A DNA stretch of 9,359 nt from NCBI GenBank assembly GCA_016203345.1, contig JACQMZ010000020.1, forward strand, positions 1 through 9,359, in the 5' to 3' direction. Under the pieces are notes generated by a model. That model saw only the letters and a list, made by a program, of their open reading frames with translations, made no database searches and was not told the origin of the DNA. Below, piece after piece: positions 2,356 through 9,359 of this stretch. Each line of letters opens with the position of its first letter. The first letter of the stretch is position 1. The DNA comes from Candidatus Woesearchaeota archaeon. Lineage in GTDB: Archaea; Nanobdellota; Nanobdellia; Woesearchaeales; ARS49. The position numbers and the translations under genes were made by a program.

Positions 2356-2831
2356 CTTGACAGAATGCTTGCAAGTTTCTGCTTCTTGCTAGGATGATGA
2401 TTCACCATATTCAGGACAATTCTCTTCTGTATTGTTGATACGTATGCCTCATCATCGAATAGAGCTTGCAGCCATGCAGCCCGAATCTTGGGATTTCCTT
2501 GTTGAATTTCCTTCGCAATGAACCAATCACGAGATTTTCCCGCTCCTAATCCTTTAATCAAGTAGTAAATTTTCTTGCTTGAAACTTCATATTCATGCTT
2601 TCTGTGACGGTTAACCACACGTATATTGAAAACGTGCTTTACATCTCTAGTGAATTGTTGTATTAGAGCTGAATCCGTATTCACGTATCTAACAAACCAT
2701 CTCTGCCGAATCATATTCTTCCTAGGATGAGTCAACAGTTCTCTAACGCTTCTGCGCTGCGTTGCCGTCGCAAGATACCCATCCCCACAAATATGCGCCA
2801 CTGTTCTGGCCAACTCAGGAGTCACTTCCAT
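2337..2831 (-). CDS. Free-standing LAGLIDADG homing-endonuclease-like protein, second domain apparently truncated
   Basis: 164 aa with two LAGLIDADG-type motifs: LARTVAHICGDGYL (aa ~7-20) and AAWLQALFDDEAYV (aa ~118-131). Only about 33 aa follow motif 2, against about 100 aa between the motifs. The last 19 nt including the stop (2337-2355) are the reverse complement of the tRNA-Trp 3' end. Confidence 0.7.
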   Translation of the reverse strand: MEVTPELARTVAHICGDGYLATATQRRSVRELLTHPRKNMIRQRWFVRYVNTDSALIQQFTRDVKHVFNIRVVNRHRKHEYEVSSKKIYYLIKGLGAGKSRDWFIAKEIQQGNPKIRAAWLQALFDDEAYVSTIQKRIVLNMVNHHPSKKQKLASILSSGSIGI

Positions 2832-2853
2832 GATGTCAAACTGCTGCTTGGTT

Positions 2854-2859
2854 CTTATA
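2854..2859 (-). promoter_or_regulatory. TATA-like box (TATAAG on the - strand) upstream of the LAGLIDADG ORF
   Basis: 22 nt separate the hexamer from the ATG at 2831. No SD-like motif lies between them. Confidence 0.35.
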
Positions 2860-3003
2860 GTCGTTATGAAGCAATATGTCCTGTCCAGTGCCTATTTGCT
2901 CTGTTGTAGTTGCGCCACCAACAAGTCGCTATACGAACATTGCACCAAATCAATAGTTTTCAAATGCGGGTATTATGGCACAGCAATTATTAAAAAGTCA
3001 AGC

Positions 3004-4680
3004 ATGGCGCCCAAATGCATGCCAAAAGAGGAGTATAGTCCAGCGGCACAAAAACTTCTGCACTACATGATGTCACACCCATTTGACAGGGTGTCGCTTC
3101 TCACGCACTTGCCGCCCCAAACAAAAGCAACACTTCAATCCATGTACAGCAGAAACGACCTGCCCATGAGGGCCACGCTCTTAAAAATCATCGTGACTGT
3201 TGATCTTGAACTTGAAAGGAATAAGCGAAAGTTTGACGAAGTAACTCAAGCAGAGAAAGAAGCAGTCTTTGAGATGTTTGCACAAACTATTCCAGACGCT
3301 GATCCTCCGCTCGTACACCTGTTTGACAAGAAGGCAGAATCCTTTCTCGACCAGTGGGCAGTCAAGCACGGTCACGGCTCAATCAAGGAGGGTGCGTTCA
3401 CTTCGTACATCGTCGAAGGGGTTACGCTGATTACTGCAAAAGCGCTTGAGCATGACCCGTTGTTTCACGGACAGGAATTATCGACGAGGTACAAGTCTTT
3501 TGCAAAACAACGTGTGCCGATTCCACCTGTGCTCGATAAGTCGCCGCTTGCAGGGGAACTGCGTGCGTATTTTGAGCGGAGTTTGCAGGATTATCTCGAA
3601 GCATCACGAATAATGAATGAGTTTCAGGCCACGGCATTTCCGGCGCCTGAAGGAATCAGTCCTGCCGGATGGAAGCAGGTGTTGGGTGCTGAAACATTTG
3701 ACAACGCTCGATACTACCTCAATGCAGGCATCACCACTTCTCTTGGCATCGTCGAGGATGCGCGCACGCTTGAGCGAAAACTGCGCAACCTTCTGGTGTT
3801 TCCGTTTCCTGAAACAAGGGACGTGGCGCAGGAAATTCTTGAGAAAGGGCGTACGGAACTCACGACGCTTTTAAAGCATGTTGATCCGAACGAGTACAAG
3901 AAAAATGCGGAAGAACAATTGGCACTGGAACGGGAAACGGTCATGAAAGGTGCACGCCACACCATTCTTCCCACTCGCGACGTCGCGCTCCTTCACGCCA
4001 CCCCTGATCTTGAAAATAGAATGATTGCTGATCTTCTTTATGGTGAAGCCAGGCACGGATTTGCGTGGGCGGATGTCTACAGTCGTGTTCAACGATTATC
4101 TGCAGACGACAAAAAACAGATTCTCGAACGCGCATTTGAAAAGCTGGGCAAACACGACGACCCGTTGTCGACTTTGCGGGGAACGCGACTTGCATTCGAA
4201 CTTTATCCTGACTTTGGCGCGTGGCGGGACATTGAGCGACACAGGCGGTGCAACCAGTCATTCCCGCTTCCAACGTGCGATTACGGATATAACACGCCAT
4301 GGCTTGTGGGAGAAGCTGGTCTTGCACAGCATTACAAAGATCACATGGAGCGTGCGGCTGATGTGTTTGAGAAAGCACGAAAAGTGTGTCCTGAAGAGGC
4401 AGTGATTGTTCCTGCGCTTGGATTCAAGGTCAAGCAAACCATTGATGGAGATATCGACGAGTGGGTGTACATCTGGAGACTTCGTACTACTCCTTATGGC
4501 CACTTTTCCTACAGGAAGATATTCCAAGAAACATTCAGAGCAGCAAAACCGCATATTCCCCTCCTTGCAGACATCATTGAACGCAAACAGCTCATCGATA
4601 TGAACGGTTATCACCATGGCAGACTCGTTGAAGAGCAACGATTCGAAGCCAAGATGAAATTGCGGGAAGGGAATTCATGA
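3004..4680 (+). CDS. thyX: ThyX-like flavin-dependent thymidylate synthase, two tandem ThyX-fold domains in one chain (558 aa)
   Basis: Domain 1: KHGHGSIKEGAFTSYIVEG...LEHDPLFHGQELSTRY...NARYYL...DARTLERKLRNL. Domain 2: LAFELYPDFGAWRDIERHRRCNQ (RHR at nt 4237-4245)...IVPALGF...IWRLRTTPYGH. Both follow the T. maritima ThyX order as I recall it (HGHETPFEH..FTF...RHRIASYNELSGRY...ARIVLP...NARSL..FL.LR..SHAQ). Start moved from 2830 to ATG 3004, because the first 58 codons of the ORF lie in the divergent intergenic region and look non-coding. Confidence 0.8.
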   Translation: MAPKCMPKEEYSPAAQKLLHYMMSHPFDRVSLLTHLPPQTKATLQSMYSRNDLPMRATLLKIIVTVDLELERNKRKFDEVTQAEKEAVFEMFAQTIPDADPPLVHLFDKKAESFLDQWAVKHGHGSIKEGAFTSYIVEGVTLITAKALEHDPLFHGQELSTRYKSFAKQRVPIPPVLDKSPLAGELRAYFERSLQDYLEASRIMNEFQATAFPAPEGISPAGWKQVLGAETFDNARYYLNAGITTSLGIVEDARTLERKLRNLLVFPFPETRDVAQEILEKGRTELTTLLKHVDPNEYKKNAEEQLALERETVMKGARHTILPTRDVALLHATPDLENRMIADLLYGEARHGFAWADVYSRVQRLSADDKKQILERAFEKLGKHDDPLSTLRGTRLAFELYPDFGAWRDIERHRRCNQSFPLPTCDYGYNTPWLVGEAGLAQHYKDHMERAADVFEKARKVCPEEAVIVPALGFKVKQTIDGDIDEWVYIWRLRTTPYGHFSYRKIFQETFRAAKPHIPLLADIIERKQLIDMNGYHHGRLVEEQRFEAKMKLREGNS

Positions 4681-5801
4681 GAAAACTTCAACGCGTACCC
4701 CTCTGGTATTTTGCTGGCGCGATTGTTGGCGACAGGTCGCATCAAGAGTTTTACCAAGCCGCTGTTTCTGCGTTAAAGGAGACTGGAAAAGTGTGGTCTG
4801 AACATGTGGCGTATCCTGACGTGCAGGCATGGGAATCGAAACAAAATGACAACGTGTTTCTCCGTGATTTCAGGGGGTTGAGAAGTTCAAAAGGGCTTGT
4901 TGCTGACATCAGCATGCCAACGACAGGAGGCGGCGGAGAGCTTGAGTTCGCTCTTAATACGGATATTCCGGTTTGTTGCGTCTACCTCGCAGGTGAAGAA
5001 GCGCAGACAAGAAATATCAGGCCGTCACCGTATGTTCTTCACCGCGCCACAAGCGGCACTGCGCCAAACCTCACTGTACAACCGTATGAAAACAAGGAAC
5101 AGCTTGAAAAGATTGTGCGAGAGTTTGCGCAACAGGAACTCAAGGCCCGACCCCTTCTGGCAGGCGCTTACTTCGTGCTTGAGGGACCTGATGGTGCTGG
5201 TAAAACAACGCAGTGGAAGCTGGTGCTTGAACACTTAAAACAACAAGGTTATGATGTATTGTCTGTCAGGGAGCCGGGAGGAACGCTGCTGGGTGAAGAA
5301 GTGAGGAATATTTTGCTCAACAAAAACGTGCAGATGACGCCGTATGCTGAACTTTTCTTGTTTTCAAGTGCGCGTGTCCAGTTGTTTGAGGAGTCCATTC
5401 TGCCTGCGATGCACGCTGGAAAACTTGCTGTTAGTGACCGCAATTTTCTTTCCACAAATTGTTATCAGGGTGGCGGTCGCGGCATGAATAGGTCAGTACT
5501 GCACGTATTGAACACGCTTGCTACCAAACACACAGATCCTGACTATTGTCTCGTGCTCGATGCGCCAGGAGGGGTGCTGGACAGGCGAAAGGGTTCCCTG
5601 CCAAAAGACCGTATCGAAAAGGAAGGTGCAGGATTCCATGATCGTGTCAGGCAAGCATACAAAGACTTTTGTTGCGAACTGCCCAATGCAGAGTTGATTT
5701 CGATCATGGACGGCGACAGAGAACTTACAGTAGACGAGTTGTTCCAAACTGTGAAGTCAAGGATAGACACGTTTCTCAAAGACAACTTCCGAGAAGCTTG
5801 A
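4677..5801 (+). CDS. tmk: Bifunctional protein: DNPH1/Rcl-like (nucleoside 2-deoxyribosyltransferase superfamily) N-terminal domain fused to thymidylate kinase
   Basis: aa 163-374 carry YFVLEGPDGAGKTTQ (P-loop), SVREPGGTLLGEEVRNILL and SDRNFLST.CYQG, a classic dTMP kinase. aa ~7-150 carry WYFAGAIVGDR, FYQAAVSALKETGKVWSEHVA, LRDF, VADISMPTTGGGGELEFA and VCCVY, which resemble DNPH1/Rcl. The ATG overlaps the thyX-like stop (ATGA, 4677-4680). A G-rich GGGAAGGGA lies 4 nt upstream. Confidence 0.85.
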   Translation: MRKLQRVPLWYFAGAIVGDRSHQEFYQAAVSALKETGKVWSEHVAYPDVQAWESKQNDNVFLRDFRGLRSSKGLVADISMPTTGGGGELEFALNTDIPVCCVYLAGEEAQTRNIRPSPYVLHRATSGTAPNLTVQPYENKEQLEKIVREFAQQELKARPLLAGAYFVLEGPDGAGKTTQWKLVLEHLKQQGYDVLSVREPGGTLLGEEVRNILLNKNVQMTPYAELFLFSSARVQLFEESILPAMHAGKLAVSDRNFLSTNCYQGGGRGMNRSVLHVLNTLATKHTDPDYCLVLDAPGGVLDRRKGSLPKDRIEKEGAGFHDRVRQAYKDFCCELPNAELISIMDGDRELTVDELFQTVKSRIDTFLKDNFREA

Positions 5802-5809
5802 GAAACTTT

Positions 5810-6760
5810 TTAGCGCAACACATAATTTAAGTTTAATTCCACCATAAGGAAGAGAATGTAGACAAACACCAGCGTAACTCCTTCTTTCCACGTGATTTCT
5901 CGTCCTTTTTCAACAAATGTCGCAAAGAGAAAGCAGACGAAGACCATGAAGAGCGAGCTTGTAATAAACAAGAGAAAATCTGTTTGAATTGGGGTGATAA
6001 GGGCAGTGACTCCGAGGACAAGTGTGGAGTTTGCCACGACGCTTCCCATAAGATCTCCAATGTTTAATTGAGGGTGTTTCCTGACAATTGAAATTACGCC
6101 AAACGCCAGTTCGGGAAGAGATGTTCCGAGAGCGACGAAAAACAGCCCAATAAAAATTCGTGGAAGCGAGAGGTCAATGGCCAAATTCGTTCCTGATTCC
6201 ACAACCGTACGCGCACTGAAATACAGAACTGTCACACTTCCCACAAACAGTATCAGGTGGGCAATGCCTTTCCAATGCGTGACATGATTCTGAACAAGTT
6301 TGGGAAAGCTCTGCCGCTCATGCATCAAATGAAACAGGTATATCATAAAAGTGGCGAGCAAAACAAGCCCGTCGATCTGGCTTAGTTCGTTTCCGACGAA
6401 CATGAGTGCAACAGGCAGTGCGGCAATTGCAGTCATCCACAAGGCATCAGTCTTGATCAAAGGATTGCGCACAGGGATGCCTCGGGCAAGAATAACAGTC
6501 AATCCAAGAATGAGCGTCAGGTCGATGATGTTACTGCCAATCACGTTGCCCAATGCAAGCGATGCATTTCCACTGCGTCCAGCGCTGATGCCAACAAAAA
6601 GTTCAGGAAGACTCGTTGATACCGCCATGAGAACAAAAGCTATAACGAATTCGGTCATATGAAGAAATCTCGCAAGCATCACAAGAGAACGCACAAGAAG
6701 CCCTGCACTAACCATGAGCACAACACTGGACAAAACGAACCACGTCAGGTTAACCCACAC
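5810..6760 (-). CDS. CaCA-family Ca2+/cation antiporter (YrbG / NCX_Mj-like)
   Basis: Two alpha-repeats: STSLPELFVGISA...GNVIGSNIIDLTLILG and GTSLPELAFGVIS...GDLMGSVVANSTLVLG. About 10 hydrophobic segments. The maximal ORF starts at GTG 6802. I prefer GTG 6760, because GGGGGA (6772-6767) lies 6 nt upstream and TM1 is still included. Either start overlaps the ATPase 3' end (stop at 6752-6750). Confidence 0.85.
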   Translation of the reverse strand: MWVNLTWFVLSSVVLMVSAGLLVRSLVMLARFLHMTEFVIAFVLMAVSTSLPELFVGISAGRSGNASLALGNVIGSNIIDLTLILGLTVILARGIPVRNPLIKTDALWMTAIAALPVALMFVGNELSQIDGLVLLATFMIYLFHLMHERQSFPKLVQNHVTHWKGIAHLILFVGSVTVLYFSARTVVESGTNLAIDLSLPRIFIGLFFVALGTSLPELAFGVISIVRKHPQLNIGDLMGSVVANSTLVLGVTALITPIQTDFLLFITSSLFMVFVCFLFATFVEKGREITWKEGVTLVFVYILFLMVELNLNYVLR

Positions 6761-9359
6761 GGAAAGTCCCCCACTTGTACAATTCAAGTGCGGCAAAACC
6801 ACTCAAGGCAACAAAAACAATGGTGCCCATCTCTATGCCTGACAAAGGAACAACTCTAAAGAGCTCCTGAAGTGGTTGCCAGTAAATGACCGCAAGCTGT
6901 AACGCCAGCGATCCTCCGACTGCGGCGACCATGTATGGGTTTTTGAAAATGCCAATAGACAGGACAGGCCCGGTCAGCGATCGGCAACTCACTGCACGAA
7001 ACAACTCAAACAAGACGAGCGTTGAAAACGCAATGGTCTGCGCCTTCAAAACGTTTGCATCAAGATAATAGACGAACATGCCCAAGACTGCCACTGTCAA
7101 CAACAACGGTGACAGCAGCATCTGCCCGCCAGTGCCGGCGAACACGCTTGCTTCAGGCTTTCGCGGCGGCCGCGACATAATCCCTGGCCCAGCAGGATCC
7201 ACGCCTAATGCCAACGCCGGCAGGCCGTCAGTCATCAGATTGACCCACAACAAATGAATGGCAAGCAACGGCAAAGGCAGGCCGGCAACAACTGACACAA
7301 ACACCACCAACACTTCTCCAATATTGCATGACACAAGATACGTCAAGTATTTTTGAATGTTATCGTAAATCGTCCGACCTTCCTGCACTGCTTTCACGAT
7401 CGACGCGAAATTATCATCGGCAAGCACCATAGCGCTTGCTTCTTTTGCCACGTCGGTGCCGGTGATCCCCATGGCTATACCCAAGTCTGCTTTTTTGAGT
7501 GCAGGCGCGTCATTCACGCCATCTCCTGTCATGGCGACCACGTGGCCCTTCTTTTTCAACGCATCAACGATCGCCAATTTATGCGCAGGATCCACCCGGG
7601 CGTAAATCGCAATATCTTCAACTTCCTTCTCCAGGTCAAGCGATTCTACATCCTTGCCGGTAATGGCCCGTCCTATAATACCCAATTCCTTGCCTATCGC
7701 GACTGCAGTGGTCAAATGATCTCCAGTAATCATCACGACTTTAATCCCTGCAGTGCGGCACTGGGTGATGGCGTCCTTGACTTCCATGCGCGGCGGATCG
7801 ATCATTGCCTGCAAGCCAACCAAAACAAAATCCTTTTCCATTACCTTACTTTTTCCTTTCAAAGGCTTATACGCGAATGCCAGCACGCGCAAGGCATCCT
7901 GGGCAAACCCCTCGCACACTTTCAGAATCTGGCGTTTCTTTGCAGGAGTCAACGCAGTCTCTTTTCCATTCACCCGCAGCTTCTTGCACAAACCCAACAT
8001 GACTTCTGGCGCTCCCTTCATGTACGCCACTTTCTTGCCACTCACTGCATGCACAGTGGTCATCCGCTTCCGTTCGCTTGTAAACTCAACTTCGTCAACT
8101 CGTGGAAACTTTCCGTGTAGTTCTTCTGCATCAAGCCCTGCCTTTTTGGCGCTTACGATCAACGCAGCTTCTGTCGGGTCGCCCAACACTTCAAACGTGG
8201 AGTTTTCGTGGCGAACGCGTGCGTCATTATTGAGCGCGCCAATCTGCAGCAACAGTGAAAATTTCCTGGAATCCTCACTGAATTGGCCGGCAGGGTCGTA
8301 GCCTGATCCTGTAACGGTAATGACTTTCCCATTCACATACATTTTCGTCACTGTCATCTCATTGTGTGTAAGTGTTCCTGTCTTGTCAGAACAAATGACT
8401 GTGCACGCACCCAGAGTTTCCACACTTGGCAGCCGGCGCACGAGCGCGTTCTTCCGCGCCATTGCCTGCACACCCAGAGCAAGCGAAACTGTCACCACTG
8501 CAGGCAATCCTTCAGGAATCGCGGCCACTGCCAAAGCTACCGATGTCATAAACATTTCCACGAAGTCCTTTCCAAGTGCGACGCCCATTCCAAATGTCAC
8601 GACGGCAATGAGTACCACTGCAGTTCCCAAAAACTTTCCCAACCATGCCAGCTTTTTTTGCAATGGTGTTGGCTCGGTCTTTGTCTCCTGAATGAGAGAC
8701 GCAATCTTGCCCACTTCTGTTTTCATGCCCGTGCCAGTGACTACTGCCTTTCCATGCCCGCCAGTCACGATCGTGCCCGAAAACACCACGTTGCGACGTT
8801 CAGCAACAGGAACATCAGCAGAAAGCACCGCGTCCTCCTTTGACACGGGCAAACTCTCCCCAGTCAATGCAGCCTCCTGCGTCTTCAGGTTAACAACCTC
8901 CAAAAGGCGGGCGTCAGCAGGAATTTTGTCCCCTGTTTCCAGCAAAATAATATCGCCAGGAACCACACTGGAACTATCTACCTTTCGCTGGATGCCATCG
9001 CGCACAACAGTTGCCTTTAACGACAACACTTTTTTCAGCGCTTCAATAGCCGCCTCGGCCCGATAGTCCTGCACGAACCCAAGAATAGCGTTCAACACAA
9101 CGATGGCGGCAATGACGTAAAAGTCAGTGATTTCTCCGAGAAAATATGAAATGATCATTGCGCCAATCAGAATCCACACCAGAGGACTCGTGAATTGTTC
9201 GACAGCGAGCTTCAGAAGGCGAAACCGCTCGCGCACCTGAATAGTGTTCGGGCCATAGGTTTTCAGCCGCGCATCTGCCTCGGACTGTGACAGCCCTCGC
9301 GCAGGGTCGGTTTGCAGTTCATGAAGCACCTCTTTCGCAGGAACGGCAAAATATTCCAT
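6750..9359 (-). CDS. Ca2+-transporting P-type ATPase, P2A/SERCA-like (869 aa)
   Basis: Motifs present: LTGES, PEGLPAVVT (TM4 Ca site), CSDKTGTLT (phospho-Asp D325 at nt 8387-8385), KGAPE, MITGDH, TGDGVNDAPALKKADLGIAMG, NIGEV (TM5) and LLWVNLMTDGLPALALG (TM6). The ATG is the last codon of the window (9359-9357). The N-terminus looks complete (..EVLHELQTDPARGLS..EA..RL..YGPN), but an upstream extension cannot be excluded. Confidence 0.95.
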   Translation of the reverse strand: MEYFAVPAKEVLHELQTDPARGLSQSEADARLKTYGPNTIQVRERFRLLKLAVEQFTSPLVWILIGAMIISYFLGEITDFYVIAAIVVLNAILGFVQDYRAEAAIEALKKVLSLKATVVRDGIQRKVDSSSVVPGDIILLETGDKIPADARLLEVVNLKTQEAALTGESLPVSKEDAVLSADVPVAERRNVVFSGTIVTGGHGKAVVTGTGMKTEVGKIASLIQETKTEPTPLQKKLAWLGKFLGTAVVLIAVVTFGMGVALGKDFVEMFMTSVALAVAAIPEGLPAVVTVSLALGVQAMARKNALVRRLPSVETLGACTVICSDKTGTLTHNEMTVTKMYVNGKVITVTGSGYDPAGQFSEDSRKFSLLLQIGALNNDARVRHENSTFEVLGDPTEAALIVSAKKAGLDAEELHGKFPRVDEVEFTSERKRMTTVHAVSGKKVAYMKGAPEVMLGLCKKLRVNGKETALTPAKKRQILKVCEGFAQDALRVLAFAYKPLKGKSKVMEKDFVLVGLQAMIDPPRMEVKDAITQCRTAGIKVVMITGDHLTTAVAIGKELGIIGRAITGKDVESLDLEKEVEDIAIYARVDPAHKLAIVDALKKKGHVVAMTGDGVNDAPALKKADLGIAMGITGTDVAKEASAMVLADDNFASIVKAVQEGRTIYDNIQKYLTYLVSCNIGEVLVVFVSVVAGLPLPLLAIHLLWVNLMTDGLPALALGVDPAGPGIMSRPPRKPEASVFAGTGGQMLLSPLLLTVAVLGMFVYYLDANVLKAQTIAFSTLVLFELFRAVSCRSLTGPVLSIGIFKNPYMVAAVGGSLALQLAVIYWQPLQELFRVVPLSGIEMGTIVFVALSGFAALELYKWGTFRVG

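Follow-up and report, generated by a model that had tools for sequence, protein, structure and literature searches.

The gene at positions 4677-5801 of the forward strand of a 9,359-nucleotide stretch of a Candidatus Woesearchaeota genome (contig JACQMZ010000020.1; the whole stretch is called the window below) joins two known domains in a single chain of 374 amino acids. Its N-terminal part is a DNPH1/Rcl-type 2'-deoxynucleoside 5'-monophosphate (dNMP) N-glycosidase domain, and its C-terminal part is a thymidylate kinase (Tmk). This fusion is recurrent and undescribed, and its N-terminal domains constitute a distinct subfamily with altered specificity determinants. A literature search found no paper that describes a DNPH1-Tmk fusion or its function, and the NCBI record of the identical protein, 'dTMP kinase [Candidatus Woesearchaeota archaeon]' on a 9.6-kb contig, names the kinase for thymidine monophosphate (dTMP) only. 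Judged from the sequences, the fused hydrolase may act as a gatekeeper at the step from dTMP to thymidine diphosphate (dTDP), destroying a dTMP look-alike, a proposal to which we give about an even chance.

A DNPH1-family domain joined to a thymidylate kinase

Sequence, fold, catalytic residues and phosphate pocket confirm the N-terminal domain as a member of the DNPH1 family. A phmmer search of residues 1-160 against all PDB sequences matched rat Rcl at E 3.6e-9 and human DNPH1 at about 1e-7, similarities beyond chance, and returned nothing besides DNPH1/Rcl better than E 0.31. A profile of the three closest fusion proteins gave a best E of 4e-13 against the PDB, with DNPH1/Rcl alone at E ≤ 1. 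Pfam PF05014 (Nuc_deoxyrib_tr) covers residues 11-104; it scores 29.9 bits on the domain alone against a gathering cutoff of 28.8, and 27.4 bits, slightly below that cutoff, on the full protein. Because Tmk matches dominated the Foldseek search of the full-length model against the PDB, the N-terminal domain was modelled separately. The AlphaFold2 model of residues 1-159 has a mean predicted local distance difference test score (pLDDT) of 93.9, and its top 50 PDB neighbours are all DNPH1/Rcl structures, with template modelling (TM) scores of 0.76-0.85. The best of them is 8qhq, human DNPH1 with 5-hydroxymethyl-deoxyuridine monophosphate (5hmdUMP), at E 2e-10 and TM 0.82-0.85. The likeness to DNPH1/Rcl that an earlier note on this DNA had proposed is thus found both in sequence and in predicted fold.

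The functional residues of human DNPH1 were defined by structural papers of 2023 (PMC10603095, PMC10483697). A human DNPH1 sequence served as the numbering ruler, and its residues at 24, 29, 30, 55, 56, 76, 80, 98, 100, 102, 104 and 128 matched those papers. Y24, D80 and E104 form the catalytic triad, with E104 bearing the covalent deoxyribose-phosphate intermediate (PMC10603095, PMC10483697). E55 activates the hydrolytic water, and H56 stabilises the leaving base and contacts its O2 (PMC10603095). The 5'-phosphate is bound by S98 and a glycine loop, together with S128' of the partner subunit, and the base is sandwiched by I29 and I76 under a lid, R30 with D73, that reads O4 through a water (PMC10603095, PMC10483697).

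All of these positions are matched in the window protein (Table 1) except R30 and D73, which are V17 and N57, indicating that the chemistry and the monophosphate pocket are kept and the base-reading lid is not. I16 and V60 correspond to the base-sandwiching I29 and I76, and the 5'-phosphate pocket is present in the form of T82, a conservative change from Ser98, G84/G86 and S117. The retention of S117, the partner-subunit Ser, implies a DNPH1-like dimer, which is predicted here from sequence; DNPH1 itself forms a homodimer in which a helical extension is swapped. The earlier note had singled out a conserved Asp and the Glu at the nucleophile position. Their codons are as it claimed, GAT at 4866-4868 and GAG at 4938-4940, and they map to human D80 and E104. 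The equivalents of Y24, H56, D80, S/T98, G100, G102, E104 and S/T128' are kept in all 21 well-aligned fusions; the E55-equivalent Glu is kept in 17 of these, and the H56-equivalent His is invariant. Across 19 representatives of the fusion clade with about 30% identity (alignment A5), Y11, H43, N59, D64, G84, G86 and E88 do not vary.

Mammalian DNPH1/Rcl is the closest match by sequence and fold, and it shares with the window domain the triad, the Glu-His pair, the Ser/Gly phosphate pocket and the partner-subunit Ser. Its function is also tied to a thymidylate kinase, in that 5hmdUMP is removed before DTYMK can act. The mammalian enzyme, however, is a stand-alone protein of about 150-170 residues, whereas the window domain is covalently fused to Tmk; identity is about 22-26%, R30, R33, D73, L99, Y103, A129' and G133' are all replaced, and an invariant Asn is gained. 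Assignment as a classical nucleoside 2-deoxyribosyltransferase (NDT) was rejected, since a phosphate-binding Ser/Thr is present and the three-sequence profile matched none of the PDB NDTs, nor MilB or BlsM, at E ≤ 1. The cytidine monophosphate (CMP) and hydroxymethyl-CMP N-glycosidases MilB and BlsM share the PF05014 superfamily fold and the Glu-nucleophile chemistry with the classical NDTs. Unlike the window domain, NDTs have no phosphate pocket but a 5'-OH pocket with Asp/Asn, and MilB binds phosphate with an Arg that the window protein misses (PMC10603095).

The C-terminal half is a Tmk, as the earlier note had said of the remainder of the chain, and it belongs to the canonical type-II (E. 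coli-like) kinases. It reaches 130 bits with TIGR00041, an equivalog model whose cutoff is 83.25, and 112-114 bits with PF02223. An alignment with Aquifex Tmk spans the whole domain (E 1e-32) and shows the P-loop, REPGGT, D254-R255 and the LID arginines R303, R304 and R312 to be present; the Foldseek TM scores for the enzymes of E. coli, Aquifex and Thermotoga are 0.88-0.93. Its 213 residues share 33-37% identity and all motifs with the bacterial type-II Tmk of E. coli and Aquifex aeolicus, which, unlike the window protein, carry no N-terminal hydrolase domain.

The full-length AlphaFold model has a pLDDT of 94.7 and a predicted TM score (pTM) of 0.90, with a drop in pLDDT to 71 at residues 301-310 that is consistent with a mobile LID. 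Short beta-strands at residues 4-6 (nt 4686-4694) and 371-373 (nt 5787-5795) appear only in this model and not in that of the N-terminal domain. Both termini are invariant in close homologues (M1, L4, R6 and P8; N370, F371 and E373). The model suggests that the paired termini may clamp the two domains into one rigid unit. A chance open reading frame (ORF) or a mis-called start was ruled out, as the N-terminus MRKLQR(I/V)P.WYF is kept in four lineages.

Table 1. Features of the fusion gene and of the adjoining thyX-like gene, in window coordinates
Feature	Position	Strand	Remarks
ThyX-family gene, tandem-duplicated type	3004..4680	+	PF02511
Fusion gene, DNPH1-like + thymidylate kinase	4677..5801	+	374 aa
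ATGA overlap, thyX-like stop and fusion-gene start	4677..4680	+	read from sequence
DNPH1/Rcl-type dNMP N-glycosidase domain	4701..5147	+	aa 9-157; sequence and fold matches
Y11	4707..4709	+	human Y24, catalytic triad; invariant in all fusions
E42-H43 in SEHVA motif	4800..4805	+	human E55 and H56 of the LTEHV motif
N59	4851..4853	+	human L75 position; one residue before base-stacking V60 (human I76)
D64	4866..4868	+	human D80, general acid
T82-T-G-G-G-G-E88	4920..4940	+	T82 = S98; glycine loop = G100/G102; E88 = E104 nucleophile
S117	5025..5027	+	human S128'; profile alignment 'kevSkyi' on rat 'rvlSami'
Thymidylate kinase domain	5160..5798	+	aa 162-374
P-loop GPDGAGKTT	5184-5210	+	in Tmk domain
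LID segment R303/R304/K305 and R312	~5574-5624	+	in Tmk domain

The positions that read the base are remodelled throughout the fusion clade. In human DNPH1, O4 of the base and the 5-hydroxymethyl group are recognised by R30 together with the 128'-133' extension (PMC10603095). Arg occupies the R30 position in none of the 21 fusions, as compared to 82 of 130 other family members. The D73 position is mostly Gly, the R33 position mostly Asp and the L99 position mostly Thr; the Y103 position holds Ala, Met, Arg or Gly, the A129' position Lys, Trp, Arg or Pro, and the G133' position His, Asp, Gln or Glu. At the L75 position, Asn does not vary among the clade members (19 of 19; it is N59 of the window protein), as compared to 3% of the other family members. 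A separate homologue search with the clade profile A5, whose word index missed the known fusions, returned only stand-alone DNPH1-like proteins, did not widen the taxonomic range and served as an independent control; all 21 of these further homologues are canonical at the signature positions, including Arg at R30. The motif pairing with Rcl in the earlier note reflects a real overall similarity but overlooked that the Arg of rat YFCGSIRGGR (rat R19, human R30) is V17 here. These data suggest that the fusion clade most likely kept the chemistry and changed the recognised base, and that its specificity probably differs from that of mammalian DNPH1, given the missing R30-type lid Arg and the invariant N59. 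N59 is a candidate for a new base-recognition residue.

Recurrence of the fusion beside thymidylate synthase genes

To examine the spread of the domain, a set of 1.84 billion representative proteins was searched exhaustively by hmmsearch with a profile of the N-terminal domain (E ≤ 1e-3). This gave 704 matches, mostly stand-alone proteins of 135-150 residues. The best 150 of the 704 were typed for domains by local phmmer and Pfam. Among these 150, at least 15 clusters have the DNPH1-like domain followed by Tmk, one of them incomplete, and at least three (P0028, P0039 and P0129) have the reversed order. The earlier note knew of no characterised example of this architecture. That part stands, since the architecture is rare and not described in the literature searched; the fusion is nevertheless recurrent, with at least 18 clusters in both orders. 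Named sources are all DPANN archaea, namely Woesearchaeota (the window), Aenigmatarchaeota (L006) and Nanoarchaeota (P0039), and other contigs bear archaeal markers. A Foldseek search of the full-length model against viral structures found no two-domain equivalent; the Tmk half alone was matched, and hits with more than 370 aligned columns had root-mean-square deviations of 13-20 Å.

In a neighbour-joining (NJ) tree of the domain, the Tmk-fused domains of both orders form one clade apart from the rest, with three stand-alone proteins interspersed. For one of the three, P0130, the gene follows a stand-alone tmk gene at a distance of 14 nt. The two share an RNase HII/SET neighbourhood with the Nanoarchaeota fusion (P0039) and represent the gene pair in its unfused form. 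Elsewhere in the family, canonical R30-type DNPH1-like domains are fused to NUDIX, GNAT acetyltransferase, SAM methyltransferase, DUF1801 and DUF4269 domains or occur as a tandem pair (P0075, P0100, P0094, P0150, P0111, P0073, P0145 and P0013).

Of the 11 readable contexts, 10 have a thymidylate synthase gene beside the fusion; it is ThyX in nine of them and ThyA with DHFR in the tenth (Table 2). In the window, the fusion gene begins with an ATG (4677-4679) that overlaps the TGA (4678-4680) of the upstream ORF, and such an overlap also occurs in L001, L002-5, L006, L007/8 and L013, suggesting translational coupling of the thyX-like gene with the fusion gene. Both the 374-residue frame and its overlap with a ThyX-like gene, as given in the earlier note, can be read directly from the sequence. 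The coupling to ThyX that the note emphasised requires one correction, in that the fusion is elsewhere also linked to ThyA.

Table 2. Domain order and adjoining thymidylate synthase genes in the readable contexts of the fusion
Context	Domain order	Thymidylate synthase gene
Window	DNPH1 then Tmk	long ThyX-family gene upstream, overlapping
L001 (P0002), L002-5 (P0003), L006, L013 (P0024)	DNPH1 then Tmk	ThyX-family gene of 541-589 aa, overlapping upstream
P0017 contig	DNPH1 then Tmk	ThyX of 533 aa, divergently transcribed
L007/8 (P0039)	Tmk then DNPH1	ThyX of 334 aa, overlapping upstream
L009/10 (P0020)	DNPH1 then Tmk	ThyA and DHFR, divergently transcribed
L015 (P0028)	Tmk then DNPH1	truncated upstream gene, ThyX C-terminus, 40.1 bits
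L016 (P0053)	DNPH1 then Tmk	truncated upstream gene, ThyX C-terminus, 36.4 bits
L014 (P0015)	DNPH1 then Tmk	sub-threshold ThyX fragment alone, 12.9 bits

The ThyX-like protein of the window is of a long form (533-589 residues) that accompanies most of the fusions, whereas the Nanoarchaeota locus has a single-domain ThyX. The mechanically called ORF starts at 2830 and spans 616 residues, against 541-589 in homologues, and its first 58 or so codons (2830-3003, forward strand) have no counterpart there. The true start is therefore probably M59 (nt 3004) or M64 (nt 3019). PF02511 scores 64.9 bits on the whole protein, above the gathering score, and 42.6 and 26.9 bits on its two halves separately, which marks the protein as a tandem duplication. 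The ThyX motif (RHR...S.RY) is split between the halves, whose degenerate motifs are complementary: the first reads EHD...QELSTRY, with EHD in place of the lost RHR and QE.S.RY kept, and the second reads RHRRCNQSF, with RHR kept and S.RY lost. This pattern suggests a pseudo-dimeric enzyme that may have half the usual number of active sites. Because TIGR02170 reaches 15.3 bits against a cutoff of 87.9, we infer, rather than assert, thymidylate synthase activity for this protein.

The L014 fusion (353-2166 of its contig; P0015), which belongs to a distant lineage, has Pro at the position of the water-activating Glu and a weak Tmk score of 46.7 bits. Directly after it come a second tmk, which is strongly canonical (147.7 bits), and an adenylate kinase gene. 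As this case illustrates, the fused kinase domain may have diverged in specificity in some lineages.

Proposed role of the fused domain and its alternatives

From the domain identities, the conserved catalytic residues, the recurrence of the fusion and its linkage to synthase genes, all of them observed, we infer a hydrolytic activity, a substrate and a sanitising role for the N-terminal domain. It would most likely bind a dNMP through the conserved Ser/Thr-Gly phosphate pocket and cleave the N-glycosidic bond, most likely by the double-displacement route of DNPH1. E88 would attack C1', D64 and H43 would assist departure of the base, and E42 would activate water, affording the free base and deoxyribose 5-phosphate. 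A look-alike that Tmk would otherwise phosphorylate towards DNA would thereby be removed. Candidate substrates are 5hmdUMP, which could arise from the methylene intermediate of thymidylate synthase or by oxidation, and surplus deoxyuridine monophosphate (dUMP). Owing to the remodelled base pocket, homology cannot choose between the two. Human DNPH1 blocks the DTYMK-dependent phosphorylation of 5hmdUMP (PMC10603095), and the proposed gatekeeper would, by analogy, mirror this competition. As to a source of 5hmdUMP, it is the acid-trapped form of a ThyX intermediate, and in phage SPO1 it is the product of ThyA homologues (PMC3498832). The earlier note had suggested sanitation of the dNMP pool or channelling as roles for the domain, and these likewise stand as proposals.

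Several points weigh against gatekeeping. The single-clade result depends on an NJ tree without bootstrap support. R30 with D73, A129' and G133' are all replaced, so homology gives 5hmdUMP specificity no support, and 5hmdUMP is not to be assumed as the substrate. If dUMP were the substrate, the hydrolase would compete for it with the co-transcribed synthase. Documentation of physiological 5hmdUMP release from ThyX was not found in the accessible literature. Finally, gene fusions join consecutive steps more often than competing ones, which favours a transferase over a hydrolase.

Such a transferase would be a salvage phosphodeoxyribosyltransferase, in which the covalent E88-deoxyribose 5-phosphate is passed to thymine or uracil and not to water. 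Any salvaged dNMP could be the donor, and the reaction would supply the fused Tmk with dTMP or the neighbouring synthase with dUMP, such that the fusion would join consecutive biosynthetic steps. DPANN archaea depend strongly on salvage, which is in keeping with the idea. A precedent exists in phage DmtZ, a DNPH1-like enzyme that hydrolyses deoxyadenosine monophosphate (dAMP), transfers deoxyribose 5-phosphate to the Z base and is sometimes fused to the preceding enzyme of its pathway, DutZ (PMC12884076). Modelling and mutagenesis have led to the proposal that its Asp12, equivalent to R30, determines the specificity for adenine (PMC12884076). The same specificity position is altered in the fusion clade, where the N3-H/O4 edge of a pyrimidine acceptor could be recognised by N59. 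Like DmtZ, the window protein has a non-eukaryotic DNPH1-like domain placed at the dNMP pool, with an altered R30 equivalent and a pathway partner as neighbour or fusion. The partner of DmtZ, however, is a dUTPase-like triphosphatase and not Tmk, and DmtZ serves the synthesis of the phage Z-genome. By its published description alone, DmtZ has Asn in the triad and Asp at the R30 equivalent, where the window protein has D64 and V17.

Four observations argue against transfer to a base. The window protein keeps the water-activating Glu (E42) along with the remainder of its LTEHV-type motif, and this Glu is present in 17 of the 21 fusions. The triad has Asp and not Asn77 of DmtZ. DNPH1/Rcl is itself a hydrolase. 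Moreover, with a synthase beside the fusion in 10 of 11 contexts, there is no obvious need for a bypass to dTMP. We regard a phosphodeoxyribosyltransferase as the main rival of the gatekeeper but as unlikely, and we are rather doubtful of the specific form in which salvaged dNMPs would exchange their bases for thymine or uracil, the product would pass to Tmk or the synthase, and N59 would be the reader of the pyrimidine acceptor.

An overflow valve is a more improbable reading. In this scheme, dTMP or dNMPs in general would be catabolised when Tmk is saturated or feedback-inhibited, yielding base and deoxyribose 5-phosphate for pool balancing or as a feed into carbon metabolism. Rat Rcl and human DNPH1 take several canonical dNMPs as slow substrates (PMC10483697), and stand-alone DNPH1-like proteins without a Tmk linkage are widespread in prokaryotes, as the 704 representatives, mostly of 135-150 residues, attest. 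The valve would leave unexplained the strict linkage to Tmk and synthase and the clade-specific remodelling of the base pocket, and it would be wasteful, with costly dTMP synthesised and destroyed within one operon. A non-catalytic module that binds dUMP or dTMP, or that dimerises or regulates Tmk, is highly improbable: the pTM and terminal beta-strands of the full-length model suggest a rigid two-domain unit and the lid Arg is lost, but the invariance of Y11, H43, D64 and E88 in 19 clade members at about 30% identity points to selection on catalysis and not just on binding.

Neighbouring genes and significance

Downstream of the fusion gene and convergent to it, at 5810-9359 on the reverse strand, lie genes for a Na+/Ca2+ exchanger and a P-type cation ATPase. 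This pair is likewise convergent to the fusion in L001, L002-4 and L006, with its order swapped in L001. As the 330-residue ORF of the exchanger and the ORF of the ATPase share 53 nt, the exchanger start is probably a few codons further downstream. On the other side, a 164-residue ORF at 2337-2831 on the reverse strand, with a very weak LAGLIDADG_3 match (E 0.11), abuts the mechanical start of the 616-residue thyX ORF.

Two further ORFs, at 885-1556 on the forward and 1563-2120 on the reverse strand, resemble Gram-negative outer-membrane beta-barrel proteins. The reverse-strand ORF matches OMP_b-brl and, at 68 bits, PagL (lipid A deacylase). Its product carries a lipoprotein-like signal sequence and has ...WKF as its last residues, and that of the forward-strand ORF has ...SRF. 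Such genes are unexpected on a contig labelled DPANN, and the nearest named homologue is a Prosthecochloris 'acyloxyacyl hydrolase' with 41% identity. The syntenic relatives L001 and L006 lack both genes, whose GC content is not clearly distinct from that of the rest of the window. They could reflect gene transfer from bacteria or a chimera of assembly or binning.

Work on human cancer cells connected DNPH1 with thymidylate kinase, and here the same two types of enzyme are joined in one archaeal polypeptide. The archaea concerned have minimal genomes, and the joining is found in either domain order and beside both types of thymidylate synthase. The fusion thus provides independent genomic evidence for an ancient functional pairing of dNMP N-glycosidases with Tmk. 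To our knowledge, prokaryotic DNPH1-like proteins are essentially unstudied, and they gain from this pairing a concrete and testable role. Human DNPH1 is a current drug target, and the altered base pocket of the clade offers natural variants for dissecting DNPH1 specificity. If the substrate is a by-product of thymidylate synthase, or if the domain is a transferase, a new step of metabolite repair or salvage would be added to a textbook pathway. Base exchange, if true, would constitute a previously unknown route of thymidylate salvage at the nucleotide level in host-dependent DPANN archaea.

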